Source of the DNA: a virus
UHGV virus genome: UHGV-0008619
DNA length: 40,339 nt
Strand: one strand, 5' to 3'
Shown piece after piece: positions 9,862-40,339 of the stretch. Position 1 is the stretch's first letter, and each line of letters starts with the position of its first letter. Under the pieces are notes generated by a model. The model saw only the letters and a program-made list of their open reading frames with translations. It was not told the origin of the DNA and did not search any database. The translations under genes and the position numbers were made by a program.

Positions 9862-9942
9862 CTCAATGACTCCATAACGTAAACCTACGTGTTAATTCTA
9901 CCATTTTTGTGACAGTGCGCACACTTTTAGTTTACCTATTGT

Positions 9943-9948
9943 ATAATA
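9943..9948 (+). promoter_or_regulatory. candidate -10 element (TATAAT) for lipoprotein operon
   Basis: Perfect TATAAT about 50 nt upstream of ATG 9999, preceded by TG; no good -35. Confidence 0.25.
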
Positions 9949-9998
9949 ATTTAATCAACAGAAAGGCTCATTACAAAACGTAGTTACCGAGGTGTGAT

Positions 9999-10220
9999 AT
10001 GAGAATGTTTTGTGTTATTGCGGTTGCTATATTGATGCTTTCCGGGTGCGCTGAAGTTGTAAGACATGATGGATACTGCGCAACTAGTGCTTATGGTGTC
10101 TGCTATGAAAGATGGGTTAACGGGGTTAAGATTCCATCTGGTGAGATCTGCCGCGTTTATGATGGCACTGATGGCCATAGTGGGAAAACAAAAGATTGCG
10201 GTAGTAAGGAGTGGTTTTGA
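9999..10220 (+). CDS. small lipoprotein, candidate Cor/Llp-like superinfection-exclusion protein
   Basis: 73 aa; signal peptide with lipobox LSGC (MRMFCVIAVAILMLSGC); opposite strand to flanking tail genes. Confidence 0.6.
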   Translation: MRMFCVIAVAILMLSGCAEVVRHDGYCATSAYGVCYERWVNGVKIPSGEICRVYDGTDGHSGKTKDCGSKEWF

Positions 10221-11197: not shown

Positions 11198-14100
11198 TTA
11201 CCAAACACCAACAATAACTTTACCACCATTAGGAAGATTAACAGTGACACCGTTATTATTCATAACTACCCGTCCGTCGGCACTGCTCATATTGAATGTT
11301 TTTCCGCCCTGAACAACAACACTGCCTCTTACGGTAACGTCATTGAACACAGCCCAGCCATCTTTATTTATCATCCAACCCTGATCGCTGCCGTTCCAGT
11401 TGTGTGACGCTATGTAGTTGCCTATTTTTGCGTTGTCTATTGAACCGTCTTTAATAAACGCTTCTTTCACATACATTGCACCATTGGTGACATAGAAAGG
11501 CGTTGTATATGTGCCGTTCGCGTCAGTCATTAGCACGAAGCGATCAACAAGGAAAATACACTGCGATTGAAAGTTAGTACCGTCTCCAGTCAATCCAAGC
11601 GACATACCTGTAGCGTATTTCATGCCGTTGTTATCGGTGGCTAGCTTGATTGAATATGACGCATTAATGTTACCTTTGAGATCGATTAACGCTTTTGACG
11701 TTGTCTCGACCGCTGTCGCGCTCCCGTTAAAGGTCACTTTCAGTTGTTCAATAGCCTCGGCGCGGGCATGGGTTTCGTCTGCTATTGCCGTATCGATCCT
11801 TGCTATTTCCGCTTTTGTTTCTGTCTGGCTTTTCCTGTACTTCGCTTCAATAACGTTGCTCATCTTACTTTGCGCTATTGAGTTGTTAATGAGTGCAAGT
11901 GAGGCGTTTTGTATGCTTGCTTTTGCCTGATCTATCTTGTCACTGGCTTTACCAGCCTTATCACCAACAATACCAAGCTCCGCACTGATGCCCGATATTG
12001 CCTGGGCGCGAGCGCTTGATTCATCGGCGATGGCTTGATCTAGGCGGTCAACACTGGCGTTAGTGTTATTTTCAAGCGTTGTTAAATCAGCTTTAACCTG
12101 TGTTATTGCGTCGCTTCTTGCTTGCGTTTCATCTGATATTGCTTTATCAAGACGAGAAACGCTCGCATCAGTCTTGCTTTCAAGGTTAGTTATTGAAGCA
12201 TTCACGTCACTAATGGCTTCAGCGCGTGCACTCTCCTCGTTAGCAACTGCGCGTTGCACATGGGAAATCTGGCCTTTAAGATTGTTATCCATCGCATTCA
12301 TTTCTGCCGTGATGGTTTCCAATGATTCCGCAGTCGCTTTTTTCTCTTCAGCGATAACGTTGTCGATGCGGTCAATTTCCGCCCTCGTCTCTGTTTTACC
12401 TTTCTTGTACTGAGCGGTAAGAGTTACGCGGGTGTTAGTCTGTGCAAGTGAGTTATTAATAAGAGCGAGTGAAGCATTTTGTAGTCTTGCTTTTGTCTGC
12501 GCCAGTTCGCTGTTAGTTTTTTCGCTAGACACCTCTAATGAGTCTATTCTTACCTTATGCTGTCCTATGTTATCGGCGTTTCCCTGAGCTTTTTTATAAA
12601 GCTCTTCTGTTTCTTTTTTAAGCGTGTTGGTGTCAGATCTTAAATCGCCAGTTATATTGGCGAGATTATTAGTCGCTGTTTTTAGGTCATTCGTAGCTCT
12701 TTCGATAAGATCGGTGCGGTCACCAAGATCTTTGATGCCGCCAATCATTTCTTTAAACTGTTCTGAATTCATCACGTCTTTGGTGACGTAATCGCTGATT
12801 TCATCAAAGTTTTCAGTCGGTTTGCCTGATGCTTCAACGAAGTCTGACACACCAAAGGCATTACGCGTGCGCACATAAACGTAATAAGTGTGGCCCGTGT
12901 TCATGCCGCCAAAAGTCCACTGATACCCGCGCCCGGTAAACTGAGCTAATGTGGTTACTTTTGATGGGTCTGTGATCTGGTTTTCACCTGAGTAATAAAA
13001 CTCGTATGCCGTATCAGTGGTCAGGGTTGTTTTGCTGATCGGATATACTGTTGCCTGGAAAACGCCGGGAACCCAATTAACGCCTATTGGGGCCGCTGGC
13101 GCACCAATAATCAGGTCCACAATACTTTCCGCACCCTTCATGCCAGTGTCATTACGCCCGCGAATACCAAGCGTGTAGCTGCCAGCATCAAGGCCATAAA
13201 AATCATAGCGGTAATTCGTTGTTTCATAAGCTGCCACCACGCGGCCTTCTGCGTTATATACGCGGATCTCAAAGGTCAGGCGATGCGTTGTTGTCTGCGT
13301 TTCCCATGTAGCTCTACATTGAACAGTTTCAGAACCAACATTTAACACCTTCAGGTTTTCAATGTTCGGCACGCGGAAGTGATTAAGCGTGTCGTTGTTT
13401 ATCTCAAAGATTGCGCCTTCATCAACTACAGCCTGTTTATGCGGATCGTGCTGTGCAGCCTCGATGGTGTACACGCTGTTATTTTCGGTTTCTGCTACGC
13501 TGGTGATTCGACACAGAACCGGTTTTGCAGATTCAGTCGACACGGCAAACACGGTTCCGTTACGAATCCATGCGGGCGCTGCCGCAAGGGTAATATTGTT
13601 TCCGTCAACTCCAGTGATCTGATGTTTTTTAAACTTGCCGTCGCTGTCCAGTAAGCTGATAGTGTCACCAGCCGCCACCAGGTCAGAATCAACCTTGTCT
13701 ACAGTTATCACTTTCCCATTATTCGCCACGATGCGACCGCCTAAACGAGCGCCAGCGCGGTTATTGTCGAGTATCTCGATAATATCACCTGGGGTGAAGT
13801 GAATTGCGTCACGGGCCATTTTAAACGTGAATTTTGAGGGTTCGCGTTTTGCTGTTTCTATCAGCCATTTGCCAGCGCGGTACGCCTGCCCGCGTGACGT
13901 GCAACCGAAAGCCTCCAACGTGGTTTCGTTGTAACCATCGCGGGCGATCAGTTCATCATCTGCTACGTATTCTTTTGATTGTTCCCAACCGTTTTCCGGG
14001 TCAGTCCATGACACGATCACGGCGTTGTAAGATTCTGCGCGGGCGATACTTGAACGAGTAAACGCGCCATCAACGACGTTTGCATTTGTGATGGTGGCAA

Positions 14101-15217
14101 TTGGATCCTGCGGTGCATCAATCATCACCGTAAGGCGCTGCCCGTCCCATAACGCGATTCCACGGAACATACCTGCAATGTTATCCAGCAAGTCGCGGGC
14201 GCTCATTTGCTCCGTGATGTAAGCATTAAGCGTCATGCGAGGTTCAAAACCGCCGTATCCGTCGCTAACCAACTGGTCGCAGTATTGAGAAAGCGTATAT
14301 AATGCGCCGTCATCAACGTCAATGTAACCAGCGTGGCGGGCAAGCCCGAAGCGTTCATTTTTAACCAGATACCGGAAAAGCCAGGCAGGGTTGTTGGTGT
14401 ACGCTTTTTTAAATCCACCCAGCCATAAACCTGAATACGTGCGCGTTTCAGGGTTGTAGTTGTCCGGCACATCAACAATCAGTCCGCGCAGATGATAAGT
14501 GCGGGCAGGAGTATCAGTATACTGGTCATGGTCAATTACCGCGCCAGCCACAGCGGTATGAGGGTAAGACAGGTTATCGTCGATTATTTCGCTGTAGCTA
14601 CTCCACCGCGTATCATTACGAAGAAGATCACTTTTGCTGTCTGGTGTTACGCGACGAACGCGAATATCAAACGGCTTTTCATCCGGCGCGTTGATAATGT
14701 GAGCTTCCAAGTATTCACCGCTCTGTTTACCAGGCCCGATGGTAATATCCTTAACCAGCGTCCACGTCGATGATGATGATGGCTTAACATCAACCATTAA
14801 CATAACTGACGTGTTGTATTGATTGCCCTTATCATCTGACTGAACAAGAGCGTCAACGCCAACATTTAATCTAACGCGGGTGACGTTTGGATCTGAAACG
14901 GTCCTGATTATTGGCGTATCGCGTTTTACCTGTGTGTTAACAATAACAGTTGATTCAATGGCGTTAAAACCGTTAATCGGTGATTGGTCAGCCGTGCCAT
15001 TGCGCCACGCTATACTTACCCCAGGGATTGATGTATTCCCGTTGGCGTCAGTAACAGGCGTGTCATTAAGCATCACATCATTTAATGGCGCTTTCTGGTT
15101 TACCGGACCGTATATCGGCCCCTCGCTGAGAATGTCTAAAACACGATAAAACTGTTTATGATACAGGTTATCGTTTAGCAATGTTGGTGTTTTGGCTTTG
15201 CCGCCGCCGCTACTCAT
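11198..15217 (-). CDS. J: central tail fibre / host specificity protein J homologue
   Basis: Lambda J-like blocks (LWSSYSEIID, NYNPETRTYSGLW, AFGCTSRGQAYRAG, YYVYVRTRN); ATG 15217 with AGGAG RBS; contains expanded coiled-coil segment. Confidence 0.9.
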   Translation of the reverse strand: MSSGGGKAKTPTLLNDNLYHKQFYRVLDILSEGPIYGPVNQKAPLNDVMLNDTPVTDANGNTSIPGVSIAWRNGTADQSPINGFNAIESTVIVNTQVKRDTPIIRTVSDPNVTRVRLNVGVDALVQSDDKGNQYNTSVMLMVDVKPSSSSTWTLVKDITIGPGKQSGEYLEAHIINAPDEKPFDIRVRRVTPDSKSDLLRNDTRWSSYSEIIDDNLSYPHTAVAGAVIDHDQYTDTPARTYHLRGLIVDVPDNYNPETRTYSGLWLGGFKKAYTNNPAWLFRYLVKNERFGLARHAGYIDVDDGALYTLSQYCDQLVSDGYGGFEPRMTLNAYITEQMSARDLLDNIAGMFRGIALWDGQRLTVMIDAPQDPIATITNANVVDGAFTRSSIARAESYNAVIVSWTDPENGWEQSKEYVADDELIARDGYNETTLEAFGCTSRGQAYRAGKWLIETAKREPSKFTFKMARDAIHFTPGDIIEILDNNRAGARLGGRIVANNGKVITVDKVDSDLVAAGDTISLLDSDGKFKKHQITGVDGNNITLAAAPAWIRNGTVFAVSTESAKPVLCRITSVAETENNSVYTIEAAQHDPHKQAVVDEGAIFEINNDTLNHFRVPNIENLKVLNVGSETVQCRATWETQTTTHRLTFEIRVYNAEGRVVAAYETTNYRYDFYGLDAGSYTLGIRGRNDTGMKGAESIVDLIIGAPAAPIGVNWVPGVFQATVYPISKTTLTTDTAYEFYYSGENQITDPSKVTTLAQFTGRGYQWTFGGMNTGHTYYVYVRTRNAFGVSDFVEASGKPTENFDEISDYVTKDVMNSEQFKEMIGGIKDLGDRTDLIERATNDLKTATNNLANITGDLRSDTNTLKKETEELYKKAQGNADNIGQHKVRIDSLEVSSEKTNSELAQTKARLQNASLALINNSLAQTNTRVTLTAQYKKGKTETRAEIDRIDNVIAEEKKATAESLETITAEMNAMDNNLKGQISHVQRAVANEESARAEAISDVNASITNLESKTDASVSRLDKAISDETQARSDAITQVKADLTTLENNTNASVDRLDQAIADESSARAQAISGISAELGIVGDKAGKASDKIDQAKASIQNASLALINNSIAQSKMSNVIEAKYRKSQTETKAEIARIDTAIADETHARAEAIEQLKVTFNGSATAVETTSKALIDLKGNINASYSIKLATDNNGMKYATGMSLGLTGDGTNFQSQCIFLVDRFVLMTDANGTYTTPFYVTNGAMYVKEAFIKDGSIDNAKIGNYIASHNWNGSDQGWMINKDGWAVFNDVTVRGSVVVQGGKTFNMSSADGRVVMNNNGVTVNLPNGGKVIVGVW

Positions 15218-29251: not shown

Positions 29252-30196
29252 TTACTCCCAATCTTCGCCATATTTAGCGTGCGCAACCTTATAGTTTTCT
29301 TGCGCCCGATCTAATATTCGTTTGTTTAATATATTACCGTCTTCATCAACTAATACGGTAATCGTGCTACATTTGCAGTTAATTGAATTAGGGGATCTGC
29401 TCCACCATTCGCGCTGCTCTTTTATGGTGTATGTTTTCCCGTGCCGCTGTGCGTGTGATAACCTGGTAGTCGGTGATAATGCCGAAATATGCATTTGCAT
29501 GGTGCGCAAATTAAGCTCTTCTGACGCTGCTTCTGCCTCATCCATACGCGCTGTGCGCAACGCTGTGCATATTTCAGTACGGGCAATACGTTTGCACCTG
29601 TATAGCGGCAATTGCGTTTCCTGCTGCAATGTGCGCGCTATTTCGAGTGGGTTTAGGCCACGGGCCATGCCTTCGGTTAATCGGCGGGCCATATCCTTCT
29701 TGATCTGTGCGGTCAGCCCACGCATCTCTTCAAATACACGGGTACGGACCAGGGCAAGACGCGTGCGATAGGTCTGACTGGTTAATACCGCCGACACTTC
29801 AGGGTAAGCCCTGGAATATGTGACTGACTGGTTAGCGAGGTTGGCATATTCCTGTGAAGTGCCGCGTTGATATGCTACCTTCACGTATTCCTGCCAGAAC
29901 CAGAAGTTTTCCGGGTCGGTTAACTCGAATATCTCATCAATCATGTCGCTGGCGTCTTCCAGCAAGTCATGTAATTCGTCAATGTAGATCTGGAAAGTGT
30001 ATTTCTTATTAACAGCCAGGGTATATTGTATTCTGTCCAGTATGGCGATATACGGATCTGCAACTTTCTTCAGGCAGGCTTTAAAACGCTTAATAGCACC
30101 AGACCTTAACTTCCCTGTCATTGTCGGGTCTTCGGTGTTAGATGGCATTATCGCGGCTGGAGGTATTCGCCTGATTATCTTCTTCACCCTCATCAT
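29252..30196 (-). CDS. head morphogenesis protein (minor head, SPP1 gp7/Mu F-like)
   Basis: 314 aa ORF between portal and protease; GAGGAGG RBS before ATG 30196. Confidence 0.5.
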   Translation of the reverse strand: MMRVKKIIRRIPPAAIMPSNTEDPTMTGKLRSGAIKRFKACLKKVADPYIAILDRIQYTLAVNKKYTFQIYIDELHDLLEDASDMIDEIFELTDPENFWFWQEYVKVAYQRGTSQEYANLANQSVTYSRAYPEVSAVLTSQTYRTRLALVRTRVFEEMRGLTAQIKKDMARRLTEGMARGLNPLEIARTLQQETQLPLYRCKRIARTEICTALRTARMDEAEAASEELNLRTMQMHISALSPTTRLSHAQRHGKTYTIKEQREWWSRSPNSINCKCSTITVLVDEDGNILNKRILDRAQENYKVAHAKYGEDWE

Positions 30197-31508
30197 CGTC
30201 CTCCTCTTCCGTTTCTACTTCACTGGCTGGGCCATCGTATCCGGCGGCCTCACGGATCTCATCGCCGCTAAATATTTCTTCACCAGTAGCCAGACAAGCC
30301 TGATTGATTTGTGCCATTTTGTATGCCGCTTCCAGTAGCTCGGCTTTGGTCATGGCGTTCAGGTCGTCCCATATCACTGATATATCAACTGGCATACTGA
30401 TAAGGCGTAGCGCTGCCATCTTGCTAAACAGATCTTCAAGCTCACCGCCGATTTCCTCCCTGCGGGTCATGCAGCGACTGTTGAAGTAGCGGAGGTCTTC
30501 GGTTGATGCGCGTTCGCCCTGCTGGTTCCCAACCAGGATGCGGGTTGGAATATCAATACCAGCGGCGGCGGTTTGCAGGTTGACGTCATAGGTTGCTGAC
30601 GGGTCAGATACGGCAGTCACCAGCGGGCTAACTGTTGCCCCTTGTAATGCCATCATCACGTCGTTACCCTTATTCATTTCATCCGCTGCCTCATTGAATT
30701 TTTCTCGCAGCTCTGTGACGTCGCATCCGTATGTAGCTGCCAGTGACCTGAAGTCAATATCCTTGTCGAATGAGATAGCAAGCTGTCGTGCGGCGTTTTT
30801 CAGGAACGATTCACCACTACCGCCTTCCACTTTCTCCAGTGACACAAAGGCGTTATATGACGGTTCAAGGAAAGCGATGGCATCATCAGAATAGTCGCCA
30901 AAGATGAAAATGCGGTCAGGGTGGATCCTTCTTGCTATGGTCTTACTGTTAATGCGTTCCTTGTACTCCCACCACGTAGGCAGGCCATAGTTTTCATTAT
31001 CCGGGTCTTCTTCGAACTCCTTCGGCGTAAGCGCACCAGCCCATACCGGGGTAAATTTGGCAATGCCTACGCCTTTTGTGACTGGCTTATCCCACGGCTG
31101 GTTATCTCTGACATGAATCAACAGGCCAGCATAACGACCAATGAGGCGGCGGCGGTCGCATTCAGCAATGACACGCCAAAATCTGTTGTCGAATTGTTTC
31201 TTGATTTCTCTTTCCCAGGGTGTTTCCTTTTCGGCTTTCTCGTCTTCTGTCCCCTCGATTAGCGTTGGCATGGTGCGCCAGCAAGTGGTGACAATCTTCT
31301 CCACAGCACCATGAGCGATGCCACCGCGTCTGTACAGTTTGTATAGATCGTCATACGTGATCTCTTCTTTGAATCCGTATTCACTCCACGCAGCATCACG
31401 TTTGGCATCTATCCCCATAGTGAACGGGTTGGCAGCTGCATAGCGGGCGTATGCCGCCTGGCGTTGTGACAAGGCAGCATTAACCGCCAATTCTAAATTG
31501 GATGGCAT
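30138..31508 (-). CDS. portal protein
   Basis: About 456 aa with acidic C-terminal tail (EEEDDDEGEED), immediately downstream of terminase; AGGAG RBS before ATG 31508. Confidence 0.75.
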   Translation of the reverse strand: MPSNLELAVNAALSQRQAAYARYAAANPFTMGIDAKRDAAWSEYGFKEEITYDDLYKLYRRGGIAHGAVEKIVTTCWRTMPTLIEGTEDEKAEKETPWEREIKKQFDNRFWRVIAECDRRRLIGRYAGLLIHVRDNQPWDKPVTKGVGIAKFTPVWAGALTPKEFEEDPDNENYGLPTWWEYKERINSKTIARRIHPDRIFIFGDYSDDAIAFLEPSYNAFVSLEKVEGGSGESFLKNAARQLAISFDKDIDFRSLAATYGCDVTELREKFNEAADEMNKGNDVMMALQGATVSPLVTAVSDPSATYDVNLQTAAAGIDIPTRILVGNQQGERASTEDLRYFNSRCMTRREEIGGELEDLFSKMAALRLISMPVDISVIWDDLNAMTKAELLEAAYKMAQINQACLATGEEIFSGDEIREAAGYDGPASEVETEEEDDDEGEEDNQANTSSRDNAI

Positions 31509-31520
31509 AATGTTTACTCC

Positions 31521-31560
31521 TGAATACATGTTTACGCGTTGCTACGCGAAAAATAGAAAA
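31521..31560. repeat. conserved ~40-bp element, copy 2 (upstream of portal)
   Basis: TGAATACATGTTTACGCGTTGCTACGCGAAAAATAGA; 24-bp exact match to copy at 18786-18809. Confidence 0.6.
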
Positions 31561-31586: not shown

Positions 31587-33065
31587 TTAAAATCCGCGCA
31601 GGCGCTTCGGTAACATGAGGCCCATTGCCTGTGGTTGGCTTAGTTCGGTAATACCCCATACCATCGCGTCCATACGGTCAGGGGATTTTTTAGCGGTAGC
31701 TGGCACGTATTCCATCATTTGATTTTCCAGCGTGTACAGACTGCCAGTGTGTGCCACCCTGCCCTGGGCATACAGTGCAGATATTGGTTCAGCACGGGCG
31801 AATTTACCCTTGCTTGCGTGCACCTTAACAATGCGGCCTTTGAACCCTGCATTGCGTAGTGTGGCCTCTGCCATGTCACCGCCCTGGTTGGTTTCGATAA
31901 CCATCGCGTCAGCTTCATGGATGTCATATGCTTTCATGGATGCTTGCGCCCAGTCGTTAGGCGACATGCGGCCTGAATAGTCACCATCAACAGAATACTG
32001 AGCATTCTTACCGCCACCATATGCGGAACACGCCACGATCCCCGTTTCGTCAGATTCATCAGATGACGTTGTCGCCGGGTCGATGGCTATTACCGTGCGG
32101 ATCTTGTCCTGCGTTATCTGCATCCGGTGCGCTGCGGTTATCATCGCTTCAGTCCACAATGCACCCTCTTCGTCGAATTTACGCGGGCGCTGCATGTACT
32201 GGGCCTCAAATGACCGCCTGTGTGCTTTCAGTCCAGCTTCATGGGCGTCATTGTGCTTTTTAGGCCATAGCCAACCATCAGGCAGGTTGTGAGGAATAGG
32301 GATAGCGAACTCGTTTTCAGGGTACAAATCCCGGTAGCCAACGCTGTTGTCGATCTTCACTGGCAAGTTCAGGTGATGCCATTTCTCACCACTTCCACCG
32401 CGTAGCAGGTAGCCGGACAAATCATCGTAGTGGATGCGTTGCATGATGACGATAACAGGCGTCGTTTGCACTGCCAGACGTGAAGCAAGCGTGTCGTTAT
32501 AGTTAGTGTTTACCTGCTTTCTCACCACGTCAGAGTAAGCGTCAGCGGGTTTTAATGGGTCGTCGATGATTAACGCACCGTTAAATCCCGGTTCCATATA
32601 CCCAGCACGGAACCCAGTAACCTGGCCCAGCGATGACGTTGCATACACGCCGCCACCGTATTCAGTCCACCACATCGATTTACTGTTTGCATCGTTGCGG
32701 ATCTTCATGGGCCACATTGCCTGATACTCAGGCGTACAGATCATGTTTCTTACAGTTGAGGAGTTGAGTAGCGCCAGGTTGTTGGAATAGGAAACGTGAA
32801 GGAAGCGTGTGCGGGGATTTATTGCGAGGGACCGTGCCATCATGTTGATGGTAGCGATCATGGTTTTACCGTACCCTGGGGGAATGTTGATGATGAGTCG
32901 GGTTATCTCACCATTGACAACGCGCTGCAACGCGTCGCGGATAGCTAAGTGATGGCCTGATAGTAACATCTTCGTTCCGTTCGCTTGCTTGTAAAAGTAG
33001 CGATTGAAAAACAGGCCATCGTTTTCACATTTGGACTGAATAACTCGTTCTTTGATTGTCAACAT
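31587..33065 (-). CDS. terminase large subunit
   Basis: Walker A PPGYGKT near N-terminus, C-terminal nuclease-type acidic residues; ATG 33065 after GAGGTG. Confidence 0.85.
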   Translation of the reverse strand: MLTIKERVIQSKCENDGLFFNRYFYKQANGTKMLLSGHHLAIRDALQRVVNGEITRLIINIPPGYGKTMIATINMMARSLAINPRTRFLHVSYSNNLALLNSSTVRNMICTPEYQAMWPMKIRNDANSKSMWWTEYGGGVYATSSLGQVTGFRAGYMEPGFNGALIIDDPLKPADAYSDVVRKQVNTNYNDTLASRLAVQTTPVIVIMQRIHYDDLSGYLLRGGSGEKWHHLNLPVKIDNSVGYRDLYPENEFAIPIPHNLPDGWLWPKKHNDAHEAGLKAHRRSFEAQYMQRPRKFDEEGALWTEAMITAAHRMQITQDKIRTVIAIDPATTSSDESDETGIVACSAYGGGKNAQYSVDGDYSGRMSPNDWAQASMKAYDIHEADAMVIETNQGGDMAEATLRNAGFKGRIVKVHASKGKFARAEPISALYAQGRVAHTGSLYTLENQMMEYVPATAKKSPDRMDAMVWGITELSQPQAMGLMLPKRLRGF

Positions 33066-33067
33066 AA

Positions 33068-33553
33068 TCACACCTCATCTTCTACTTCCTGAACGATGCG
33101 GGCGATCTCTTCTTTTGTGACTTCTACCTGTACGGGCGCTTCTTCCCTGTTGCCGACGATTTCCTGCGTAACGCGTTCGCCATACTTACGCGGTTGCAGT
33201 TTTGCCAATAGCCATTTACGCGTTTCAATCATCAGTTGATGGCGGCGGCATTCGTCTTTATCGATGTTCTCCGCTGCATCGGCTATATCGATGATCTCAT
33301 CAGCCAATACCTCAAAACCGATCTCCTTCGCGCGCATGTACATGTCCGAGAACTCTGGCACGTCTCTGAACCATTTGAGGATTGTTGAACGCGCAGGCAT
33401 ATCAGGCATCTTCGAAATCTTGTTAATACTATGACCGTCCGCCACCAGCTCGCAGATTTCTAATGCCTTTTCTTCGGTATAACCATGCGGACGGCCCGTC
33501 TTTTTGGCTGCTGGCTTTTTGTCTTCAGCATTTGCCTTTTTAGTGCGGGCCAT
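33068..33553 (-). CDS. terminase small subunit
   Basis: 161 aa, basic N-terminus with HTH (HGYTEEKALEICELVADGHSINKISK), immediately upstream of large subunit; AAGAGGTGA RBS. Confidence 0.7.
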   Translation of the reverse strand: MARTKKANAEDKKPAAKKTGRPHGYTEEKALEICELVADGHSINKISKMPDMPARSTILKWFRDVPEFSDMYMRAKEIGFEVLADEIIDIADAAENIDKDECRRHQLMIETRKWLLAKLQPRKYGERVTQEIVGNREEAPVQVEVTKEEIARIVQEVEDEV

Positions 33554-33563
33554 ATTTCACCTC

Positions 33564-33647
33564 TTAATATTTGTTGATGATATATACGCAAGCCACAAAA
33601 CTTGCGCAGTATGTTAATACTTCCAACCAGTCGAATAGCTCTTTCAT
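33564..33647 (-). CDS. mini-gene H: 27 aa hydrophobic peptide MKELFDWLEVLTYCASFVACVYIINKY
   Basis: ATG 33647 preceded by GAAGGG; stop TAA; single hydrophobic stretch. Confidence 0.45.
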   Translation of the reverse strand: MKELFDWLEVLTYCASFVACVYIINKY

Positions 33648-33657
33648 TGTTTACCCT

Positions 33658-33738
33658 TCACATAATAGAAAGCGCCCAGGTAATAAGGACGATAGCCAAA
33701 ACCATATAGATAAAATCTGACTCTCTCATGTTGTCCAT
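33658..33738 (-). CDS. mini-gene G: 23-26 aa hydrophobic peptide M(DNM)RESDFIYMVLAIVLITWALSIM
   Basis: ATG 33738 or 33729 (AGGATGG RBS favours 33729). Confidence 0.4.
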   Translation of the reverse strand: MDNMRESDFIYMVLAIVLITWALSIM

Positions 33739-33804
33739 CCTGCTTACGCGAAGAAAACGATAACAACTAACAGCGAACTTATAGCTATGATTAAGAAATC
33801 ACTG

Positions 33805-33879
33805 TCAGACATTGATAATAAACCCCACAATTACAACCGCTGCGATGCATACGAATAATACAGCTTCGATAGTTTCCAT
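33805..33879 (-). CDS. mini-gene F: 24 aa hydrophobic peptide METIEAVLFVCIAAVVIVGFIINV
   Basis: AGGTGA RBS 4 nt before ATG 33879. Confidence 0.45.
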   Translation of the reverse strand: METIEAVLFVCIAAVVIVGFIINV

Positions 33880-33887
33880 ATATTCAC

Positions 33888-33956
33888 CTATTGAGTCAGT
33901 GCGATCATAGTGAGAACAATTGCGACAATCAGGAAAAAGAAATCAAGCCATTTCAT
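33888..33956 (-). CDS. mini-gene E: 22 aa hydrophobic peptide MKWLDFFFLIVAIVLTMIALTQ
   Basis: ATG overlaps stop of gene D (ATGA); GGGAG RBS. Confidence 0.45.
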   Translation of the reverse strand: MKWLDFFFLIVAIVLTMIALTQ

Positions 33957-34033
33957 TTTTTAAACTCCCGATAAACATCAACAGCAATGACTACAACTAC
34001 AGCCACCAGCAATAGCATTTCGTATGCGTTCAT
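33953..34033 (-). CDS. mini-gene D: 26 aa hydrophobic peptide MNAYEMLLLVAVVVVIAVDVYREFKK
   Basis: ATG overlaps stop of gene C (ATGA coupling). Confidence 0.4.
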   Translation of the reverse strand: MNAYEMLLLVAVVVVIAVDVYREFKK

Positions 34034-34128
34034 TTGATGCTACCCATAACAAGGCCGATGATGATAATTATGGCGACAGTGCCTAACATCATTCCGCGCA
34101 TAATCGCCAGTAATTCGAATATATCCAT
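34030..34128 (-). CDS. mini-gene C: 32 aa hydrophobic peptide MDIFELLAIMRGMMLGTVAIIIIIGLVMGSIK
   Basis: AGGTGA RBS before ATG 34128. Confidence 0.45.
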   Translation of the reverse strand: MDIFELLAIMRGMMLGTVAIIIIIGLVMGSIK

Positions 34129-34136
34129 GCCGTCAC

Positions 34137-34211
34137 CTATACAACATTCTTCCACCAGAAATAGATAATGACGGCGACCAACGACCACCAGATGAGATCG
34201 TAAATATTCAT
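34137..34211 (-). CDS. mini-gene B: 24 aa hydrophobic peptide MNIYDLIWWSLVAVIIYFWWKNVV
   Basis: AAAGG RBS before ATG 34211. Confidence 0.4.
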   Translation of the reverse strand: MNIYDLIWWSLVAVIIYFWWKNVV

Positions 34212-34221
34212 GTGAATGCCT

Positions 34222-34296
34222 TTAGCTTTCAATGAATATCATGATCGCCAGCCATACAGCGACGCAGGCAGAAAGGATAATTAGCGGGTCAATCAT
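34222..34296 (-). CDS. mini-gene A: 24 aa hydrophobic peptide MIDPLIILSACVAVWLAIMIFIES
   Basis: GAGG RBS 6 nt before ATG 34296, 2 nt after stop of HExxH gene. Confidence 0.45.
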   Translation of the reverse strand: MIDPLIILSACVAVWLAIMIFIES

Positions 34297-34298
34297 AA

Positions 34299-34883
34299 TC
34301 AGCCTCGTTTAAAGCTCATCACACGCGGTACAAGCGCTTCTTTTGCTTTCGGCTTACGTTTGCCTTTCTTCGCGGTTTTTTCTTCTTCCTTCGGCTCCTC
34401 TGCCTGTTCAACTGCCTGTTCTGCTGCATCAGTCGCCTTTTCCGCCTGGTCTAATGCCTTCTCAACGACTTCAGCGGCCTGCATAGCTGCCAACTGTGCT
34501 TCATTAGACTCAGCCAGGATCGGGAAGAATGCGTCAAAGATGCGGCCCACCATGTAAGCATAAGTCTCGTTCGCCGGATGAGTTGGATCGGTGGTCGCCA
34601 CGACGCCTACATCACTTAAAACGTGGAATGTAGTGTGGGCGCATTCATGGACCAGCGTACCAAGCTCATTATCGAATACTGCGATCACGTAGAAGTTACC
34701 GCCTTTCTCGCCAGTGCAAGTAAGCGTCAATCCTCCTGCCAGTTCAAAATCAGGTTCGATTGGGATCCCTGCCTTTTCGCAAAATTCATAGAACATGTCG
34801 CGAGTCGGGCAGAAGAAAACTGTTGTATGCTCAAAGAGCGGGACTTTGAATTGAGGCAACTTAATGCCTTTACCCTTAGCCAT
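34299..34883 (-). CDS. HExxH-motif protein with Ala/Glu/Lys-rich low-complexity C-terminal tail (possible zinc metallopeptidase-like)
   Basis: 194 aa; motif LVHECAHTTFH; AGGAG RBS; C-terminal tail AAMQAAEVVEKALDQAEKATDAAEQAVEQAEEPKEEEKTAKKGKRKPKAK. Confidence 0.55.
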   Translation of the reverse strand: MAKGKGIKLPQFKVPLFEHTTVFFCPTRDMFYEFCEKAGIPIEPDFELAGGLTLTCTGEKGGNFYVIAVFDNELGTLVHECAHTTFHVLSDVGVVATTDPTHPANETYAYMVGRIFDAFFPILAESNEAQLAAMQAAEVVEKALDQAEKATDAAEQAVEQAEEPKEEEKTAKKGKRKPKAKEALVPRVMSFKRG

Positions 34884-35154
34884 CAGAATAATCTCCTGTC
34901 TGGTTTGCTTTTACTTCCTGTTTATACAGCGGCAGGAATGACATAAAACACTGAAAACGGCGCTTCATCAGTACCGTTTCCAGAATTTTATAAAATTGGT
35001 TAATGGCGCTTTCTTCTACCCAGGCAGCGCCTAACCTGTTAATGGGATGACGTGCATCCGGTATTGCGTGTTTTTGACTTTTCCGCCGTCGCTCGCGGGA
35101 AGGATTGGCCCGGTTATGGCTGGCTGGCAGAAACGGCGACACGCCAACGCGCTG

Positions 35155-35625
35155 TTATTCTTTGCGTAAGCACTGCGTTTTGATGTAGCCCTGAAGCGCG
35201 GTTATCTTCGCGTCCTTCTCTTTTAGTTGTTCTCTGAGGGATAGATAAGCCGATTCAGCGTCGGGAGTGAGTCTACAGGAGGCTCCATTAATGGTGCTGG
35301 CGGATCCGGTGGAGTCGGACACTCGCACGGGTATTGCGTTGACGCGCAGCCGGATAGTACCGTTATCAATGCCAGTGCGCAGATCGGCAATGTCAGATCT
35401 GATAGCTTTAATCTCATCGTGATACCTCTTATCAAGTTTTGACAGTTCGGCGTTTCGCTCCTTCATCTGCTGAATAGTGTTACTTGCCGTTTTCAGTGCG
35501 CCTTGCGTGGTCGTTAATTCTTCCTGTAACCTTGTCGCCTCACTCTGGTAATGGCATGTTACGGCTGTAAGGCTGGCAATGATGCAAACAACAGCGGCGA
35601 TGATTAACGTCTTCACCTTGTCCAT
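35155..35625 (-). CDS. i-spanin (Rz-like)
   Basis: N-terminal TM segment, coiled-coil periplasmic domain, embedded +1 frame lipoprotein gene. Confidence 0.75.
   Translation of the reverse strand: MDKVKTLIIAAVVCIIASLTAVTCHYQSEATRLQEELTTTQGALKTASNTIQQMKERNAELSKLDKRYHDEIKAIRSDIADLRTGIDNGTIRLRVNAIPVRVSDSTGSASTINGASCRLTPDAESAYLSLREQLKEKDAKITALQGYIKTQCLRKE
35223..35417 (-). CDS. o-spanin (Rz1-like lipoprotein), embedded in Rz
   Basis: MRLKLSDLTLPICALALITVLSGC lipobox followed by Pro-rich short mature region; AAGAGG RBS. Confidence 0.7.
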   Translation of the reverse strand: MRLKLSDLTLPICALALITVLSGCASTQYPCECPTPPDPPAPLMEPPVDSLPTLNRLIYPSENN

Positions 35626-35628
35626 GTT

Positions 35629-36135
35629 TCACCCCTCGCAACCCATCGAAGGTGCATATTCACCATAGAAAAAGTTTTCCGCCAAAATGCGAGCGGCGAT
35701 CGCTTCGTCTAGTGAGTCAAATAAACCAATAGATATACGCTTACCTTCATTGTCGGTAATTCTTACTCGCCATTTAGGCTTGCTTCGCTCTGTTTTGTGG
35801 TAGCTAACACCCCTGAATGCAGACAATGTGTGAGTGGCAATATGTTTCTTGTTTCTGCAGTTATGCGCATCATCTGTTTCTCGCAGGTTTACTATCCTGT
35901 TGTCGGTTTTTATTCCATTAATATGGTCAATGTCCTTTTCGGGCCACACTCCATAATGGAAAAACCACGCAAGGCGATGCGCTTTATATCTTCCTATGTG
36001 TATGTATCCGCTTTTATGCTTACACCCTGCTACGCTTCCGGCCTTGATTCTCCCGTGAGGACTAATCTTATAGGTGAAAATACCTGTCGCTGGATCGTAG
36101 TGTAGCTTTCGTTTTAGTTCATCATCACTTTCCAT
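35629..36135 (-). CDS. HNH homing endonuclease (HNH plus AP2-like), inserted between endolysin and spanin genes
   Basis: IKAGSVAGCKH, HRLAWFFHYGVWPEKDIDHINGIKTDNRIVNLR; paralogue of 1457..1963; overlaps both neighbours' ends. Confidence 0.85.
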   Translation of the reverse strand: MESDDELKRKLHYDPATGIFTYKISPHGRIKAGSVAGCKHKSGYIHIGRYKAHRLAWFFHYGVWPEKDIDHINGIKTDNRIVNLRETDDAHNCRNKKHIATHTLSAFRGVSYHKTERSKPKWRVRITDNEGKRISIGLFDSLDEAIAARILAENFFYGEYAPSMGCEG

Positions 36136-36616
36136 TGGTTACGCCCCATTCACATATAGCACGTTCAATATCGCGACGATTCTTTAAGCCTTGTATATAC
36201 CTCCCATTGTCATACACCCAGCGATCCATCTCCTTACACGCTCCCTTAAAGTCGCCTTTGTTTATTTTTTTTAACAAGGTTGATTTTTTGAAAGCGTCAA
36301 CCCCGATATTGTATGAAAAGCTAATTAGCGCGGCGCGTTGGTAGTCATTCATGTCAACTTTTACATAACGATCGACCGCCTTTTTGTAAACGGCTAAGTG
36401 TTTTTGTAAAAGTCTATCGCATTCATCAGGTGTGTATCTCTTACCAGGGACAACATCAGGGCCGGTTATGCCATTGCATACAGTTAGCACGCCTCCGGTA
36501 TCGTAATAAGGCTCGTAAGCCGTACCCTCAACCCATATAAGCAAAACAGATGCAATGGCTAACGTTCCACCAGCCGCCGCCTTAGTTAGTCGGTTTTTCA
36601 GCGATTGGCTAATCAT
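36125..36616 (-). CDS. SAR endolysin (T4-lysozyme-like, phage 21 R-type)
   Basis: N-terminal weakly hydrophobic Gly/Ala-rich SAR segment (AAAGGTLAIASVLLI), lysozyme-type motifs (VCNGITG, SFSYNIG...STLLKKIN, RRDIERAICEWG). Confidence 0.85.
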   Translation of the reverse strand: MISQSLKNRLTKAAAGGTLAIASVLLIWVEGTAYEPYYDTGGVLTVCNGITGPDVVPGKRYTPDECDRLLQKHLAVYKKAVDRYVKVDMNDYQRAALISFSYNIGVDAFKKSTLLKKINKGDFKGACKEMDRWVYDNGRYIQGLKNRRDIERAICEWGVTNGK

Positions 36617-36817
36617 TTACTTATTCCCCATTCGCGCGTCGTGTTCCTCTTGCGCTCGCTTATTCTCCTGTGATTTGAAGTAATAATTAACGGCAAATGT
36701 GCCTACGGTTGATAAGATACCCACAAAGACGGCAATGTCATTGATGGTTATCGCGCCGAAAAAAGCAGTTACGGCCCCAGTCACATACGCACACGCCTCC
36801 CGCATTCTGTCGAACAT
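36617..36817 (-). CDS. class II holin (pinholin-like)
   Basis: 66 aa, two TM segments, dual Met start (M1/M5), charged C-terminus; immediately upstream of SAR endolysin. Confidence 0.7.
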   Translation of the reverse strand: MFDRMREACAYVTGAVTAFFGAITINDIAVFVGILSTVGTFAVNYYFKSQENKRAQEEHDARMGNK

Positions 36818-36924: not shown

Positions 36925-37101
36925 TTACGCAGTTCTGTATATCAGTTTGTTATCAAACAATGTTTGCATGTGTTCGCGATCCATGTCGCTTAATTCCCAA
37001 TAAGGAACATCTTCATTCCTTATCATCACCTCTTCGCCTCTTACCAAATAGGCGATGTCAAATACCTTATGCAAATAGATGCCATCTTCGATCTCGTTCA
37101 T
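36925..37101 (-). CDS. small hypothetical protein (58 aa), paralogue of 37098..37280
   Basis: ATG overlaps stop of upstream gene; shares IEDG(I/V)Y...V.GEE/DD(V/I).IR pattern with neighbour. Confidence 0.4.
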   Translation of the reverse strand: MNEIEDGIYLHKVFDIAYLVRGEEVMIRNEDVPYWELSDMDREHMQTLFDNKLIYRTA

Positions 37102-37280
37102 AGGTCGCTAACCTTTACCAGTTCACCAGCATCAAGAAATATTTTAATTGTTTCTCGCGTCGTCTTAATGATTGGCGCTACCCACTCGCCACCGCCAACA
37201 CGGATACGAATATCATCACCTTCCACGCGGTAAAACAGCCTGTCGACTACTGTTGCTGCGTACACGCCATCTTCAATCAT
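37098..37280 (-). CDS. small hypothetical protein (60 aa)
   Basis: ORF in compact - strand operon. Confidence 0.45.
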   Translation of the reverse strand: MIEDGVYAATVVDRLFYRVEGDDIRIRVGGGEWVAPIIKTTRETIKIFLDAGELVKVSDL

Positions 37281-37476
37281 TTTTACGCTCCTTAATGGCT
37301 CGCTTGATCTGCGCTACCGTAGCATCGAAGAAAGCGAGAAACATCACCACAGGCCATAAAGGAATCTCTAGGCCACCAGGTTCAGCGCCGCTGTACTTAA
37401 TAAAACATGACATCAGGATCGCGCCAGCTATATAAAGCAAAACAATCACAGCAATAAGGCATTCAATCATAATCAT
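37273..37476 (-). CDS. small membrane protein (two predicted TM segments)
   Basis: Hydrophobic segments IECLIAVIVLLYIAGAILM and LWPVVMFLAFF; start 37476 or 37470 after GAGGA. Confidence 0.45.
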   Translation of the reverse strand: MIMIECLIAVIVLLYIAGAILMSCFIKYSGAEPGGLEIPLWPVVMFLAFFDATVAQIKRAIKERKND

Positions 37477-37726
37477 CGTCCTCATCGTCTTCATGTTCAG
37501 CCAGGAACTCATCAACTACGCGGTAAGTCACTGGCGGTATGTATTCGAAATCATCAGAATCGAGATCAAGCGTCCGGCTGTCGCCGTCATCGTCCAGCGT
37601 GTTCATCCCTAATTCACCGAAAGGGCCGTACCCCATGCGGCCCAGGTATTCGCAACCAATCGTAAAGCCAGGATATTCGCCTTTACACCTGATCTTGTAT
37701 AGCTTACTTGATGCGCTCAATTTCAA
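37463..37726 (-). CDS. hypothetical acidic protein
   Basis: 87 aa, very acidic C-terminus (EHEDDEDDDYD). Confidence 0.45.
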   Translation of the reverse strand: MKLSASSKLYKIRCKGEYPGFTIGCEYLGRMGYGPFGELGMNTLDDDGDSRTLDLDSDDFEYIPPVTYRVVDEFLAEHEDDEDDDYD

Positions 37727-38027
37727 TTCCCCCTTCTACCCCTTCAGTCATTTTGTATTCCGCAAACAGTTCAGCACCAAGTAATTCGACATCAACATCA
37801 CCAATGCCAGGGAACGCCAGATAAGCAAAAATAAGGCTTTTAATTCTATTCAGGTCTTCAAGATGGTCTGCATTAAAAGGCGGTTCAGTTACATGGAAGC
37901 ATTTAACGTGCGCGTCGTCTTCAGTGGCTACACGGAAACATGCGCCAGGTTGTCCGGCGAATTGCCCTAATGTTTCCTTGCTCGGTAAAGTGCCACGAAA
38001 AACTTTAACGCTGATAAATTTAGACAT
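37704..38027 (-). CDS. hypothetical protein
   Basis: 107 aa ORF. Confidence 0.45.
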   Translation of the reverse strand: MSKFISVKVFRGTLPSKETLGQFAGQPGACFRVATEDDAHVKCFHVTEPPFNADHLEDLNRIKSLIFAYLAFPGIGDVDVELLGAELFAEYKMTEGVEGGIEIERIK

Positions 38028-38030
38028 TTA

Positions 38031-38288
38031 TTATTCTCCTTCGTAAAGAATTGCCACCAGTTCGGCATCTGTTAGCGTGTTGTGATCTTTATAAGTACCG
38101 TAGCGGGCAACGAAAGCTATTTCGCCAGCTATTTTCCGCCACATAGGGATTGACTCATTAAAATAGGTATTCTCCATTGCCTCCCTGTATGCCAGTTCAT
38201 AAAAACGCCCGCGATTAACATCTTCAATAACGCGGCTGTACTCACCATCAAGCTGACTATTGCCGCGCCACAGCCTGAACACAACCAT
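38031..38288 (-). CDS. hypothetical protein
   Basis: 85 aa ORF. Confidence 0.45.
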   Translation of the reverse strand: MVVFRLWRGNSQLDGEYSRVIEDVNRGRFYELAYREAMENTYFNESIPMWRKIAGEIAFVARYGTYKDHNTLTDAELVAILYEGE

Positions 38289-38290
38289 AA

Positions 38291-38590
38291 TTAAAACTCC
38301 GCACCAGGTAAGCTACGCGCTTTATGCACAGTGTCCTTTTCAAGCCACATATTAGATTTAAGATCCATCATGGATATAGCGGCAACTGGCGCATAATTAT
38401 TTAATGAGTTGATGTGAAATAGTTGATTTCTGGTAAAAATCATGTCGTCGTCTGTTATATATAACCAATCGCCACGCTTACCAACAACAACATGAGATCG
38501 GCCTAAACTGTCTTTAAATTCATAATTGAAGAAAACATCACCTTTAGGCACTTCAACAAAACAGCACGCTATGAACTTATCGCTTTTCAT
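38291..38590 (-). CDS. hypothetical protein
   Basis: 99 aa ORF. Confidence 0.45.
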   Translation of the reverse strand: MKSDKFIACCFVEVPKGDVFFNYEFKDSLGRSHVVVGKRGDWLYITDDDMIFTRNQLFHINSLNNYAPVAAISMMDLKSNMWLEKDTVHKARSLPGAEF

Positions 38591-38633
38591 GATTCAACCC
38601 TTCTGGTTTGATGGGGCCATCCGACCCCGCGCT

Positions 38634-38774
38634 TTATCCTTCTTTGCCTCCTTTGAACCCCAAACACTCCGCGTATTCGTCAATGCTTAATGCTTCCTCA
38701 CCTGGTGCCAGCAATTCAAAGTAACGGGCATATAACTCAAAAACCCATGCCGGATATTTAGCGTTAGCGCTCAT
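38634..38774 (-). CDS. small hypothetical protein (46 aa)
   Basis: GGAGG RBS before ATG 38774; below ORF-track cutoff. Confidence 0.35.
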   Translation of the reverse strand: MSANAKYPAWVFELYARYFELLAPGEEALSIDEYAECLGFKGGKEG

Positions 38775-38888
38775 CTTCTTGCCTCCCCTCCGCCTTTCCG
38801 TGGCTTATATATAACAAAATGGCACTGTCGAAACAATGCCATTTCGTAAACCTTGTGATACAGATCACATTTATGGTTGTCCAACGCC

Positions 38889-39104
38889 TCACCACTTAAC
38901 AAAACGCGCCATTACACGATTATCAAAACTACCCTTAACGACCCCTTTCGCATGATCGCCGTAAAATTGCCACGCATCACCATCATTATCTTTTACATAA
39001 TGAATACCGCCAGCGCCGCGCTTGCACCCGTTGAGAAGGTCAACGCTATATGATTCTCCAACAGTAAAGCACACAGTGTCAGAGTAAACGCATCTTGCAA
39101 ACAT
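38889..39104 (-). CDS. hypothetical protein
   Basis: 71 aa ORF. Confidence 0.4.
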   Translation of the reverse strand: MFARCVYSDTVCFTVGESYSVDLLNGCKRGAGGIHYVKDNDGDAWQFYGDHAKGVVKGSFDNRVMARFVKW

Positions 39105-39106
39105 AA

Positions 39107-39358
39107 TCAGAAAACCCCTTTATAATCGACCGTGTATTTTGCCACTAATTTCCATTCACAATAGCTTTCCATATCGCGCGGCTGCCAGCCTTTCATGCCT
39201 ACCGCACTCCGCGCAGCGTGACGGCGATAATCGTCATTAAGATCCGCAATACACCACGGCTGAAGAAAAAACATGTAATTCGCTTCGTTAACCAGGATAG
39301 ACATTAGTCTTCCAGTGGCCTTATCTTTCGCCATGAAATAACTTACCTTGATTTTCAT
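39107..39358 (-). CDS. hypothetical protein
   Basis: 83 aa ORF. Confidence 0.4.
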   Translation of the reverse strand: MKIKVSYFMAKDKATGRLMSILVNEANYMFFLQPWCIADLNDDYRRHAARSAVGMKGWQPRDMESYCEWKLVAKYTVDYKGVF

Positions 39359-39569
39359 TTTTAATTACCTCGATCAGCATTTCTTCTTCCAGGTTAGCCG
39401 GACGTTTACGGAATATCCCGGCAAAAACCAGATCATCGAGTAGGTCTTTACGCTTAAATAACCACTCTTTCATTATCACCCCGTCGTCACTGCGATATAC
39501 GACGCCGTTTTTCAGAAAATAAAAAGTGTGGGTATTTGTCTGAAGGTACAGATCTTCGTAAACATCCAT
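39321..39569 (-). CDS. hypothetical protein
   Basis: 82 aa ORF. Confidence 0.4.
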   Translation of the reverse strand: MDVYEDLYLQTNTHTFYFLKNGVVYRSDDGVIMKEWLFKRKDLLDDLVFAGIFRKRPANLEEEMLIEVIKNENQGKLFHGER

Positions 39570-39573
39570 GATA

Positions 39574-39801
39574 TTAACCCTCGACTACTTGCAGCCCGCG
39601 CCCCTTGTCGCCCACGAAGTCACCAAGACTGAACGTATACGACCACGCAGGATTGATATAATGGTCATCAGCACCAGCGGCAATGAGATCAGAACCATTA
39701 ATCATGCAAGTAATCTCATCGCTATGGACGACATTAACGACCTTACCAACAACATGTTTCAATGAAGGGTATCCGTGATCGTGCAAGAATTTAACTTTCA
39801 T
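39574..39801 (-). CDS. hypothetical protein
   Basis: 75 aa ORF. Confidence 0.4.
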   Translation of the reverse strand: MKVKFLHDHGYPSLKHVVGKVVNVVHSDEITCMINGSDLIAAGADDHYINPAWSYTFSLGDFVGDKGRGLQVVEG

Positions 39802-40031
39802 TCCTCTGCCTCCCAGCGGTCAATGCTGATTAAAAAGTCCCGGATAGCGTGGCGCTCGTCGCGCGTTGGTTTACGTTTCCGGTAGATCCTGAAATCGAAC
39901 CATTCTTTTTCCTGCTCAAAATCCAGGTCGTAAGCAAGCGCCTCAATGTATCCGCATTCGTGATACCAGTACGCCACGCCAGCACGGACAAAAAAGCGGG
40001 TTTTATCCCGCTTGTGTTCATAGATACGCAT
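39798..40031 (-). CDS. hypothetical protein
   Basis: 77 aa ORF, basic. Confidence 0.4.
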   Translation of the reverse strand: MRIYEHKRDKTRFFVRAGVAYWYHECGYIEALAYDLDFEQEKEWFDFRIYRKRKPTRDERHAIRDFLISIDRWEAEE

Positions 40032-40041
40032 ATCAACCCCG

Positions 40042-40272
40042 TTATGCTGTTGTGTAACTGTCAGTCAGTATTTCATCTTTCATTCTGGCAAGCTGTGCTA
40101 TGTTCATCGTGTAGCCGCCATCAGCGAAAAGCAATTCCGCCGCAGCGCGACGGAAAGCAATATCATCATAGTTACGTGTCCATGTAGCGATCACAACGCG
40201 TTTCCCGTTAGTGGCGAACATAGACAATTCGTTATCAACAACGTCGATAGCACACCAGATTTTTAGCTCCAT
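40042..40272 (-). CDS. hypothetical protein
   Basis: 76 aa ORF. Confidence 0.4.
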   Translation of the reverse strand: MELKIWCAIDVVDNELSMFATNGKRVVIATWTRNYDDIAFRRAAAELLFADGGYTMNIAQLARMKDEILTDSYTTA

Positions 40273-40339
40273 GATTTATCTCCGTAGATCTTGAATAGTT
40301 CACACGCTTCCTGATTTTCCAATATATTCATATGCAGGT

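Follow-up and report, generated by a model that had tools for sequence, protein, structure and literature searches.

Small proteins of P22-like phages (~120–130 amino acids, aa), namely HkcC of HK620 and P22, gp70 of epsilon34, ORF47 of ST104 and orf49 of SE1, are the closest described relatives of ORF194, a 194-aa protein encoded in the virus genome UHGV-0008619 (the window, i.e. the whole stretch of 40,339 nucleotides (nt) that was analysed; coordinates refer to it unless another genome is named, and all of its features described below lie on the minus strand). These proteins are homologous to ORF194 over its whole N-terminal domain (39–45% identity to the P22-like versions), carry the same HExxH...NE..Y residues and are encoded in the same late-operon or moron setting. 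They differ from it in lacking its ~68-aa extension, an acidic helix plus a basic tail, and in being followed by terS or dec, whereas ORF194 is followed by an array of mini-genes. The sequence comparisons presented here identify ORF194 as a tailed member of the uncharacterised HkcC/PHROG 1365 family and, probably, as a zinc metallopeptidase.

Other described groups share parts of this arrangement. The minigluzincins (proabylysin and projannalysin) and selecase are archaeal minimal zincins of ~105–110 aa. They are similar to the N-terminal domain of ORF194 in size, in having HExxH with a downstream Glu and, in our model, in the order of the secondary structure elements; however, they are archaeal whereas ORF194 is a phage protein, and no sequence or structural match of ORF194 was found to any chain of the PDB, which should include these proteins. 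In the SprT-like/Spartan/Wss1 proteins (PF10263), as in ORF194, HExxH is located on a helix that follows a small sheet, but the candidate third ligand of ORF194 is Glu instead of His and ORF194 has no zinc-ribbon. DNA-dependent SprT proteases have DNA-binding regions, which the basic tail of ORF194 recalls. Iyer et al. reportedly proposed in 2017 that the MPTase-PolyVal domain (PF18818) of polyvalent proteins and ArdC acts on host proteins after DNA entry. This domain, also small and HExxH-bearing, is found in phages and mobile elements, whereas ORF194 is stand-alone, late-expressed and not labelled as a virion protein in the mEp021 phage record. Finally, ImmA/IrrE proteins (Peptidase_M78) have HExxH and a Glu third ligand ~25 residues downstream, and are phage- and mobile-element-encoded like ORF194; their genes, however, are found in the lysogeny module, next to the gene of the repressor that is their substrate, and ORF194 belongs to a late operon.

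Conservation and predicted architecture of ORF194

The ORF194 reading frame runs from an ATG at 34883 to a stop codon at 34299, with a Shine-Dalgarno sequence (AGGAG, 34893..34897) located 9 nt 5′ of the ATG. The first-pass annotation, made from the sequence alone, had described a 194-aa open reading frame (ORF) with HECAH and a charged tail, and this was confirmed. In comparisons with relatives at a synonymous divergence (dS) of 0.3–3, the ratio of non-synonymous to synonymous substitutions (dN/dS) was 0.015–0.08 for the 126 codons of the N-terminal domain and 0–0.09 for the last 23 codons: ORF194 is a real gene under strong purifying selection, tail end included. The surrounding region is 88–91% identical at the DNA level to temperate Escherichia coli siphophages of the mEpimmI group, the relatives being mEp021, mEp010, mEp013, mEp044, mEp515 and mEp554, and also phage MagusPhagus. 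The orthologs of ORF194 (mEp021 gp49 and MagusPhagus CDS0060) are 'hypothetical proteins' in the records, and the paper on the mEpimmI group published in 2025 is silent on the gene (PMC11893012). Homologs number in the hundreds, 121 of them close. Among 5,426 complete E. coli genomes, 31 carry the gene; it is chromosomal and labelled hypothetical in each of them. No signal peptide or transmembrane (TM) segment was detected in ORF194 (maximum KD19 0.88), and in our preferred reading it is an accessory protein of a temperate coliphage of the mEpimmI type, expressed late and located in the cytoplasm.

The match of ORF194 to PHROG 1365 (E = 7.4e-31) places residues 3–130 on profile positions 5–123 of 127, and tblastn ties the protein to hkcC of HK620 and to the P22 ORF. 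PHROG 1365, whose members include HkcC of HK620 and P22 and gp70 of epsilon34, has no function assigned and no Pfam or NCBIfam model; all of the sampled relatives of ORF194 (70/70) matched it. An exhaustive HMMER search with the N-terminal 126 residues gave 161 representatives (50% clustering), nearly all of them stand-alone proteins of 110–140 aa.

Family alignments of 70, 139 and 177 sequences were analysed, the mean column identity being 19–22% in the first two. The sole invariant columns were G51, H79, E80, H83 and E106, G51 being near-invariant across the 177 members, and Y110 was conserved at 98%. Within HECAH (H79 E80 C81 A82 H83; 34635..34649) the two His and the Glu are invariant (177/177) and C81 is variable; E106 (34566..34568, in NETYAY) is the candidate for the third zinc ligand and lies where the following predicted helix begins. 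HExxH with a Glu 18–22 residues downstream was found in 185 of the 189 family sequences, the four exceptions being fragments or partial matches. The longer HECAHTTFH had been put forward as a metal-binding motif: its HExxH part is kept across the family, but H87 as well as C81 vary, and the residue conserved along with the motif is E106. As a sequence pattern, HExxH plus E106 corresponds to the signature of a gluzincin, in which two His ligands share one helix with the catalytic Glu and the following helix provides a further ligand, a Glu.

The N-terminal globular domain (residues 1–126; 34506..34883) was modelled with AlphaFold2 from a 42-sequence alignment (predicted local distance difference test (pLDDT) 88.5, predicted template modelling score 0.83). 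The predicted elements are a strand at 21–25, a helix at 28–38, strands at 51–57 and 63–69, the helix bearing HExxH at 74–91 and a helix at 104–129, near the start of which E106 is found. In the model, this order (strand, helix, strand, strand, HExxH helix, E106 helix) is that of the minimal zincins. When the 139-member profile was compared with PDB sequences, five chains were matched, all of them zinc endopeptidases, and aligned on the hairpin and the HExxH helix; the E-values were marginal (0.026–0.043 for myroilysin, 0.64 for peptidyl-Lys metalloendopeptidase and 1.5 for a tolloid-like protein).

The metallopeptidase-like reading of the first-pass annotation is therefore upheld by the invariance of HExxH and the downstream Glu in a very divergent family, by the placement of the HExxH helix and by the five marginal zinc-endopeptidase matches. 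We consider a zinc metallopeptidase probable because of the conservation pattern and the predicted topology, and not because of a recognised fold or family match; none of the fold and profile searches gave a significant match.

The Ala/Glu/Gln/Lys-rich tail begins at about residue 127. It is composed of an acidic, Ala/Glu/Gln-rich helical stalk (residues 127–165, net charge −7; 34389..34505) and a basic, predicted-disordered C-terminal peptide (residues 166–194, net charge +7; 34299..34388 with the stop codon), which ends in KKGKRKPKAKEALVPRVMSFKRG. In the full-length AlphaFold2 model the last helix spans residues 103–161 and residues 171–191 are disordered (pLDDT <50), the tail being undocked. 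The stalk varies in length among relatives, which gives proteins of 144–194 aa; the C-terminal peptide KKGKRKPKAKEALVPRVMSFKRG is conserved and under purifying selection, and a related ending (YVPRIARYKRG) is found in the homolog from L099, a phage with the same head module. Most family members are tail-less and a few unrelated ones have analogous charged tails; the acidic helix and basic tail of ORF194 are lineage-specific. The roles that we considered for them, partly by analogy, would be a tether to DNA or to a partner, oligomerisation via the alanine-rich helix, or self-inhibition as in the archaeal minigluzincins.

The last of these would make ORF194 a zymogen, i.e. the same enzyme with a refinement: its C-terminal peptide would fold into the active-site cleft, or be cleaved there, until a late trigger. 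In proabylysin and projannalysin, the C-terminal tails do occupy, or are cleaved in, the cleft. The terminal peptide of ORF194 is conserved beyond a linker of variable length and, being predicted disordered, would be free to dock; however, it is undocked in the AlphaFold2 model and most family members have no tail, and we regard self-inhibition as improbable. In two related phages, L012 and L013 (4563–5000), a second HNH_3 gene is found right after the HExxH gene, and the basic C-terminus is replaced by an ending of the P0113 type (a 108-member cluster).

Several observations weigh against a peptidase with a docking tail. Pfam and NCBIfam scans of ORF194 gave no significant match, fold and profile searches with it gave no significant match to any peptidase, and PADLOC models had 0 matches for ORF194 and three relatives. 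The marginal matches to PDB chains are partly driven by the HExxH motif itself. Alignment by hhalign with an enterobacterial SprT alignment gave a probability of 9% and left the motif unaligned, and no biochemical data on HkcC-family members were found in the searchable literature. The zincin fold also houses non-peptidase hydrolases, for example RNases of the YbeY type, and the substrate of ORF194 may be something other than a peptide and still be compatible with the fold. As to the tail, it may be dispensable, because the C-terminus was replaced after the HNH insertion in L012/L013-type phages, and its docking role is purely our inference. The searches that failed to find a peptidase, together with the very small size of the protein, would also suit a non-catalytic protein, a regulator or binding protein in which HExxH is a structural or metal-binding relic. 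Relic motifs decay, however, and here, at 19–22% column identity, invariance is confined almost entirely to exactly the four catalytic-type residues, which makes such a relic highly improbable.

Assignment to a described family was also considered. For SprT, weak PF10263 matches were found in 18 of the 70 relatives (best E = 4e-4) and none for ORF194 itself at E ≤ 10; comparison by hhalign with E. coli SprT alone and with an 18-sequence alignment gave 5–9% probability, a weak test given the low diversity of the alignment, and membership was not retained. Two database sources name relatives 'PolyVal metallopeptidase' (P0118) or 'SprT-like'. MPTase-PolyVal (PF18818) was rejected, as it matched neither ORF194 nor any of the 70 relatives and its only basis was the name given to P0118 by the source. 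Peptidase_M78 of ImmA/IrrE (PF06114) was rejected as well, with a match in 1 of the 70 relatives (E = 0.099) and neighbours of ORF194 that are lysis and terminase genes. A virion or head-maturation protease was discarded: mEp021 gp49 is annotated as hypothetical and not as a virion protein, and the sole match of ORF194 to a maturation-protease PHROG (E = 0.51) is on the low-complexity tail. Virion mass spectrometry in the mEpimmI paper identified 16 structural proteins; only two were outliers, both encoded upstream of the lysis genes (PMC11893012). A single-sequence PDB search with ORF194 returned just noise on the low-complexity tail, and nothing of use was found in the literature on SprT-like phage proteases, MPTase-PolyVal or HExxH anti-defence proteins.

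Genomic context and the mini-gene array

Among loci taken from assemblies, IMG/VR and GTDB, the gene lies downstream of the lysis cassette and 0–3 genes upstream of terS/terL. This terminase-adjacent position was found in 47/47 mEpimmI-type loci, in 30/30 distant IMG/VR loci whose downstream sequence was long enough for a call, and in 10 of the 13 prophages from Enterobacterales ( Atlantibacter, Citrobacter, Kluyvera, Pantoea, Mixta, Yokenella, Phytobacter and others). The late-operon position between lysis and terminase genes extends to >90 loci; terminases of at least six unrelated types are involved and the gene spacing is often just 3–10 nt. In the P22-like phages epsilon34 (gene 70), ST64T, ST104 (ORF47), SE1 (orf49) and L, the gene is located between rha and dec, just before gene 3.

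A second type of location is found in the 'ant moron'. HK620 hkcC is a 39%-identical paralog, and P22 (L096, NC_002371.2) has an intact HkcC homolog of 121 aa (13861–14226 of the P22 genome, plus strand; HECAH...NETYCY) between sieA and orf59a/mnt, which overlaps the annotated sieA promoter and mnt terminator. This homolog has no coding sequence feature in RefSeq NC_002371.2 and was given as a gene of unknown function by Villafane et al. (2008). It is distinct from the P22 ORFan pid, which was considered and dismissed since pid is encoded on the other strand, between orf25 and orf80. Both copies, the terminase-side one and the ant moron type, are present in several phages. The alternative location and the occurrence of two paralogs in some phages argue for a mobile accessory gene of late-transcribed regions, and not for a fixed part of the packaging module.

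This bears on the possibility that ORF194 is a packaging accessory factor, which would act with TerS/TerL at packaging initiation, for instance by clearing DNA-bound proteins with its basic tail bound to DNA, by analogy with the HNH proteins that HK97-type terminases require and with which they are syntenic. The recurrence of the position in the three sets of loci, the diversity of the terminases, the tight spacing and the Lys-rich tail would fit such a factor. However, the only copy of P22 and HK620 lies ~12 kb away, in the ant moron, a moron region already known to be variable; decoration genes (dec or Hoc-like) may lie in between; and homologs are found in just 82 of 50,697 phage records, so that terminases of these types normally work without an HkcC-like protein. 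A packaging role is decidedly unlikely in our judgement, and an accessory zinc protease remains our preferred reading. In some loci ParB_N, helicase or methyltransferase genes are neighbours of the family, as they are of polyvalent-protein genes. In L102 (2528–6486), a tailed member (P0187, 189 aa) lies near a ResIII/DEAD helicase, two ParB_N proteins and an ATPase, a neighbourhood reminiscent of polyvalent-protein gene sets.

Between the HExxH gene and terS, the window contains an array of single-TM mini-ORFs (22–32 aa; 33564..34296), nine in number and not eight. The ORF194 stop codon (TGA, 34299–34301) is separated by 2 nt from the ATG of mini-ORF 1 (34296), whose GAGG Shine-Dalgarno sequence lies within the last codons of ORF194. 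This junction (TGAttATG, 34294..34301), correctly recognised in the first-pass annotation, is kept in 47 of 48 mEpimmI-type loci and persists even where the first mini-ORF is a different one. The accompanying proposal, that the nine genes form one transcription unit, needs amendment: the coupled junction is real, but there are ten genes (nine of them mini-ORFs), which do not make a self-contained operon, no terminator being present between the array and terS.

Arrays in 48 related loci (among L001, L002, L009 and L012–L062) contain 3–13 single-TM ORFs of 22–48 aa, which amount to 200 distinct peptides, and they differ via gain and loss of whole cassettes. Mini-ORF 1 displays three substitutions among four phages, all of them synonymous. 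Arrays are absent from all of the distant homologs, whose gene abuts terS or dec by 0–10 nt or lies in the ant moron. In L099, the 59%-identical protein has a tail and terS follows 4 nt after its stop codon, with no array, and a correlation between tail and array is thereby ruled out. The HExxH gene and the array have an HNH gene between them in L012 and L013. The conserved junctions, the turnover of cassettes, the lack of an array in distant homologs and the arrangement in L099 lead us to view the array as an insertion at a pre-existing coupled ORF194-terS junction: the enzyme gene is ancient and widespread, and the mini-genes were inserted recently and evolve fast.

The first-pass annotation had suggested a functional tie between the two, a processing or immunity relationship or a membrane-acting module. 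In such a scheme the peptidase would mature, degrade or guard against the single-TM mini-proteins encoded directly downstream. The 2-nt junction, an array that always comes directly after the gene in the mEpimmI lineage (but for the HNH gene in L012 and L013) and a basic tail that could approach the membrane are what such a processing or immunity partnership would predict. It does not hold up in the wider comparison, in which the family is often array-less, either before TerS or in the ant moron of P22 and HK620, in which L099 has the tail without the array, and in which cassettes are gained and lost independently of the enzyme. Moreover, neither a leader-like nor a conserved cleavage segment is seen in the mini-ORFs, and a membrane segment is lacking in the enzyme. 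Such a partnership is very improbable indeed: the coupling is real, yet a peptidase-substrate relationship finds no comparative support, and the link to the array is a lineage-specific accident and not a functional pairing.

Upstream leader and other features of the locus

A leader of 270 nt (34884..35154) separates ORF194 from Rz. It is non-coding, because indels of 2, 7 and 58 nt among relatives break every frame, in agreement with the first-pass view that no convincing gene is present. The first ~90 nt after the Rz stop codon (35071–35160) display a conservation of 0.92–0.94 across 41 distinct relatives, equal to that of the best coding stretches, and the blocks TGTCGCCGT and GGTnGAAGAAA are retained in L099; this conserved 5′ part may be a pac/cos-related or other regulatory site, or an RNA element. 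A hairpin with the layout of a bidirectional terminator (A-tract, ~22-bp stem, U-tract; 34942..34992, TERM_6 in the mEp021 record) is located 60–110 nt upstream of ORF194, and its stem is kept by compensatory substitutions in L012 and L099. The leader had also been suggested as a possible site of the promoter; a sigma-70 promoter scan of it gave no match on the coding strand, and the terminator-like hairpin was found instead. Relatives have a Q-type antiterminator gene upstream of the lysis genes, and the simplest reading is that ORF194 is part of an antiterminated late operon running without a terminator into terS. An Rfam scan of the region gave a sub-threshold S15-leader match over the terS start, which was rejected.

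Downstream of the array, the small terminase subunit gene (33068..33553; Sf6_terminase), the kept downstream neighbour in the family, is followed by those of the large subunit (31587..33071; Terminase_6C) and the portal (30138–31529). Upstream of ORF194, the lysis cassette comprises the holin (36617–36817), the endolysin (36125–36616) and, at its end, the Rz spanin (35155..35625), inside which a Rz1-type lipoprotein ORF (35223–35435, lipobox LSGC) lies out of frame. A 168-aa HNH_3/AP2 endonuclease ORF (35629–36135) between endolysin and Rz, described as overlapping both, is missing in mEp021 and MagusPhagus and found in L009, L012 and L013; it resembles a mobile homing endonuclease. Upstream of the holin (37000–40339), as in other mEpimmI phages, there are many consecutive small ORFs of the same strand (55–107 aa), to which no function was assigned. 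In the related phage L009, an intein (Pfam Intein_splicing) is present in the gene of a Mu_F-like minor head protein (9491–10534).

Proposed role and significance

The explanation that we favour, and hold to be somewhat likelier than its negation, is that ORF194 is a late-expressed accessory zinc protease with a docking or regulatory tail. Its N-terminal ~126 residues would be a stand-alone minimal HkcC/PHROG 1365 domain, a gluzincin-type metallopeptidase about as small as one can be. We infer that one zinc ion is bound via H79, H83 and E106 and that E80 acts as general base, with the assistance of Y110, in peptide-bond hydrolysis. The last helix would be lengthened into the acidic Ala/Glu stalk and end in the Lys/Arg-rich disordered peptide, which may dock the enzyme on a partner (DNA or another acidic surface) or else regulate it. 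The gene would be transcribed with the late genes, by reading through the upstream hairpin, and would be translationally coupled to the next gene, which is terS in most phages and the inserted array of mini membrane proteins here. Our best guess for the substrate, modelled on the proposals for the metallopeptidase domains of polyvalent proteins and ArdC, would be a host, defence or DNA-associated protein cleaved late in infection.

A bolder version, which we put forward tentatively and consider unlikely in its entirety, is that HkcC-like proteins are an unrecognised family of gluzincin-type proteases of ~120 residues whose fold has diverged beyond detection from that of catalogued peptidases. 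Encoded at the start of the packaging module in temperate Enterobacterales phages (among them P22, L, epsilon34 and HK620), they would act late in infection by cleaving one specific protein of the host or of a defence (e.g. a sensor of terminase, portal or capsid), and the stalk and tail of the mEpimmI version would tether it to DNA or to the packaging machinery.

The enzyme gene and the mini-gene array, which the first-pass annotation had merged, are now separate features, and the interest of the locus lies mainly in a testable catalytic hypothesis for a gene carried by P22, L, epsilon34 and HK620. If the hypothesis is true, one of the smallest zinc proteases known would be encoded by hkcC, long listed as a gene of 'unknown function' in P22 and HK620, and by its counterparts in L and epsilon34; as tractable model phages carry the gene, simple deletion and pull-down experiments could reveal the target. 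A late-expressed protease would then join the accessory ('moron') functions of phages, among which it would be a candidate for counter-defence.
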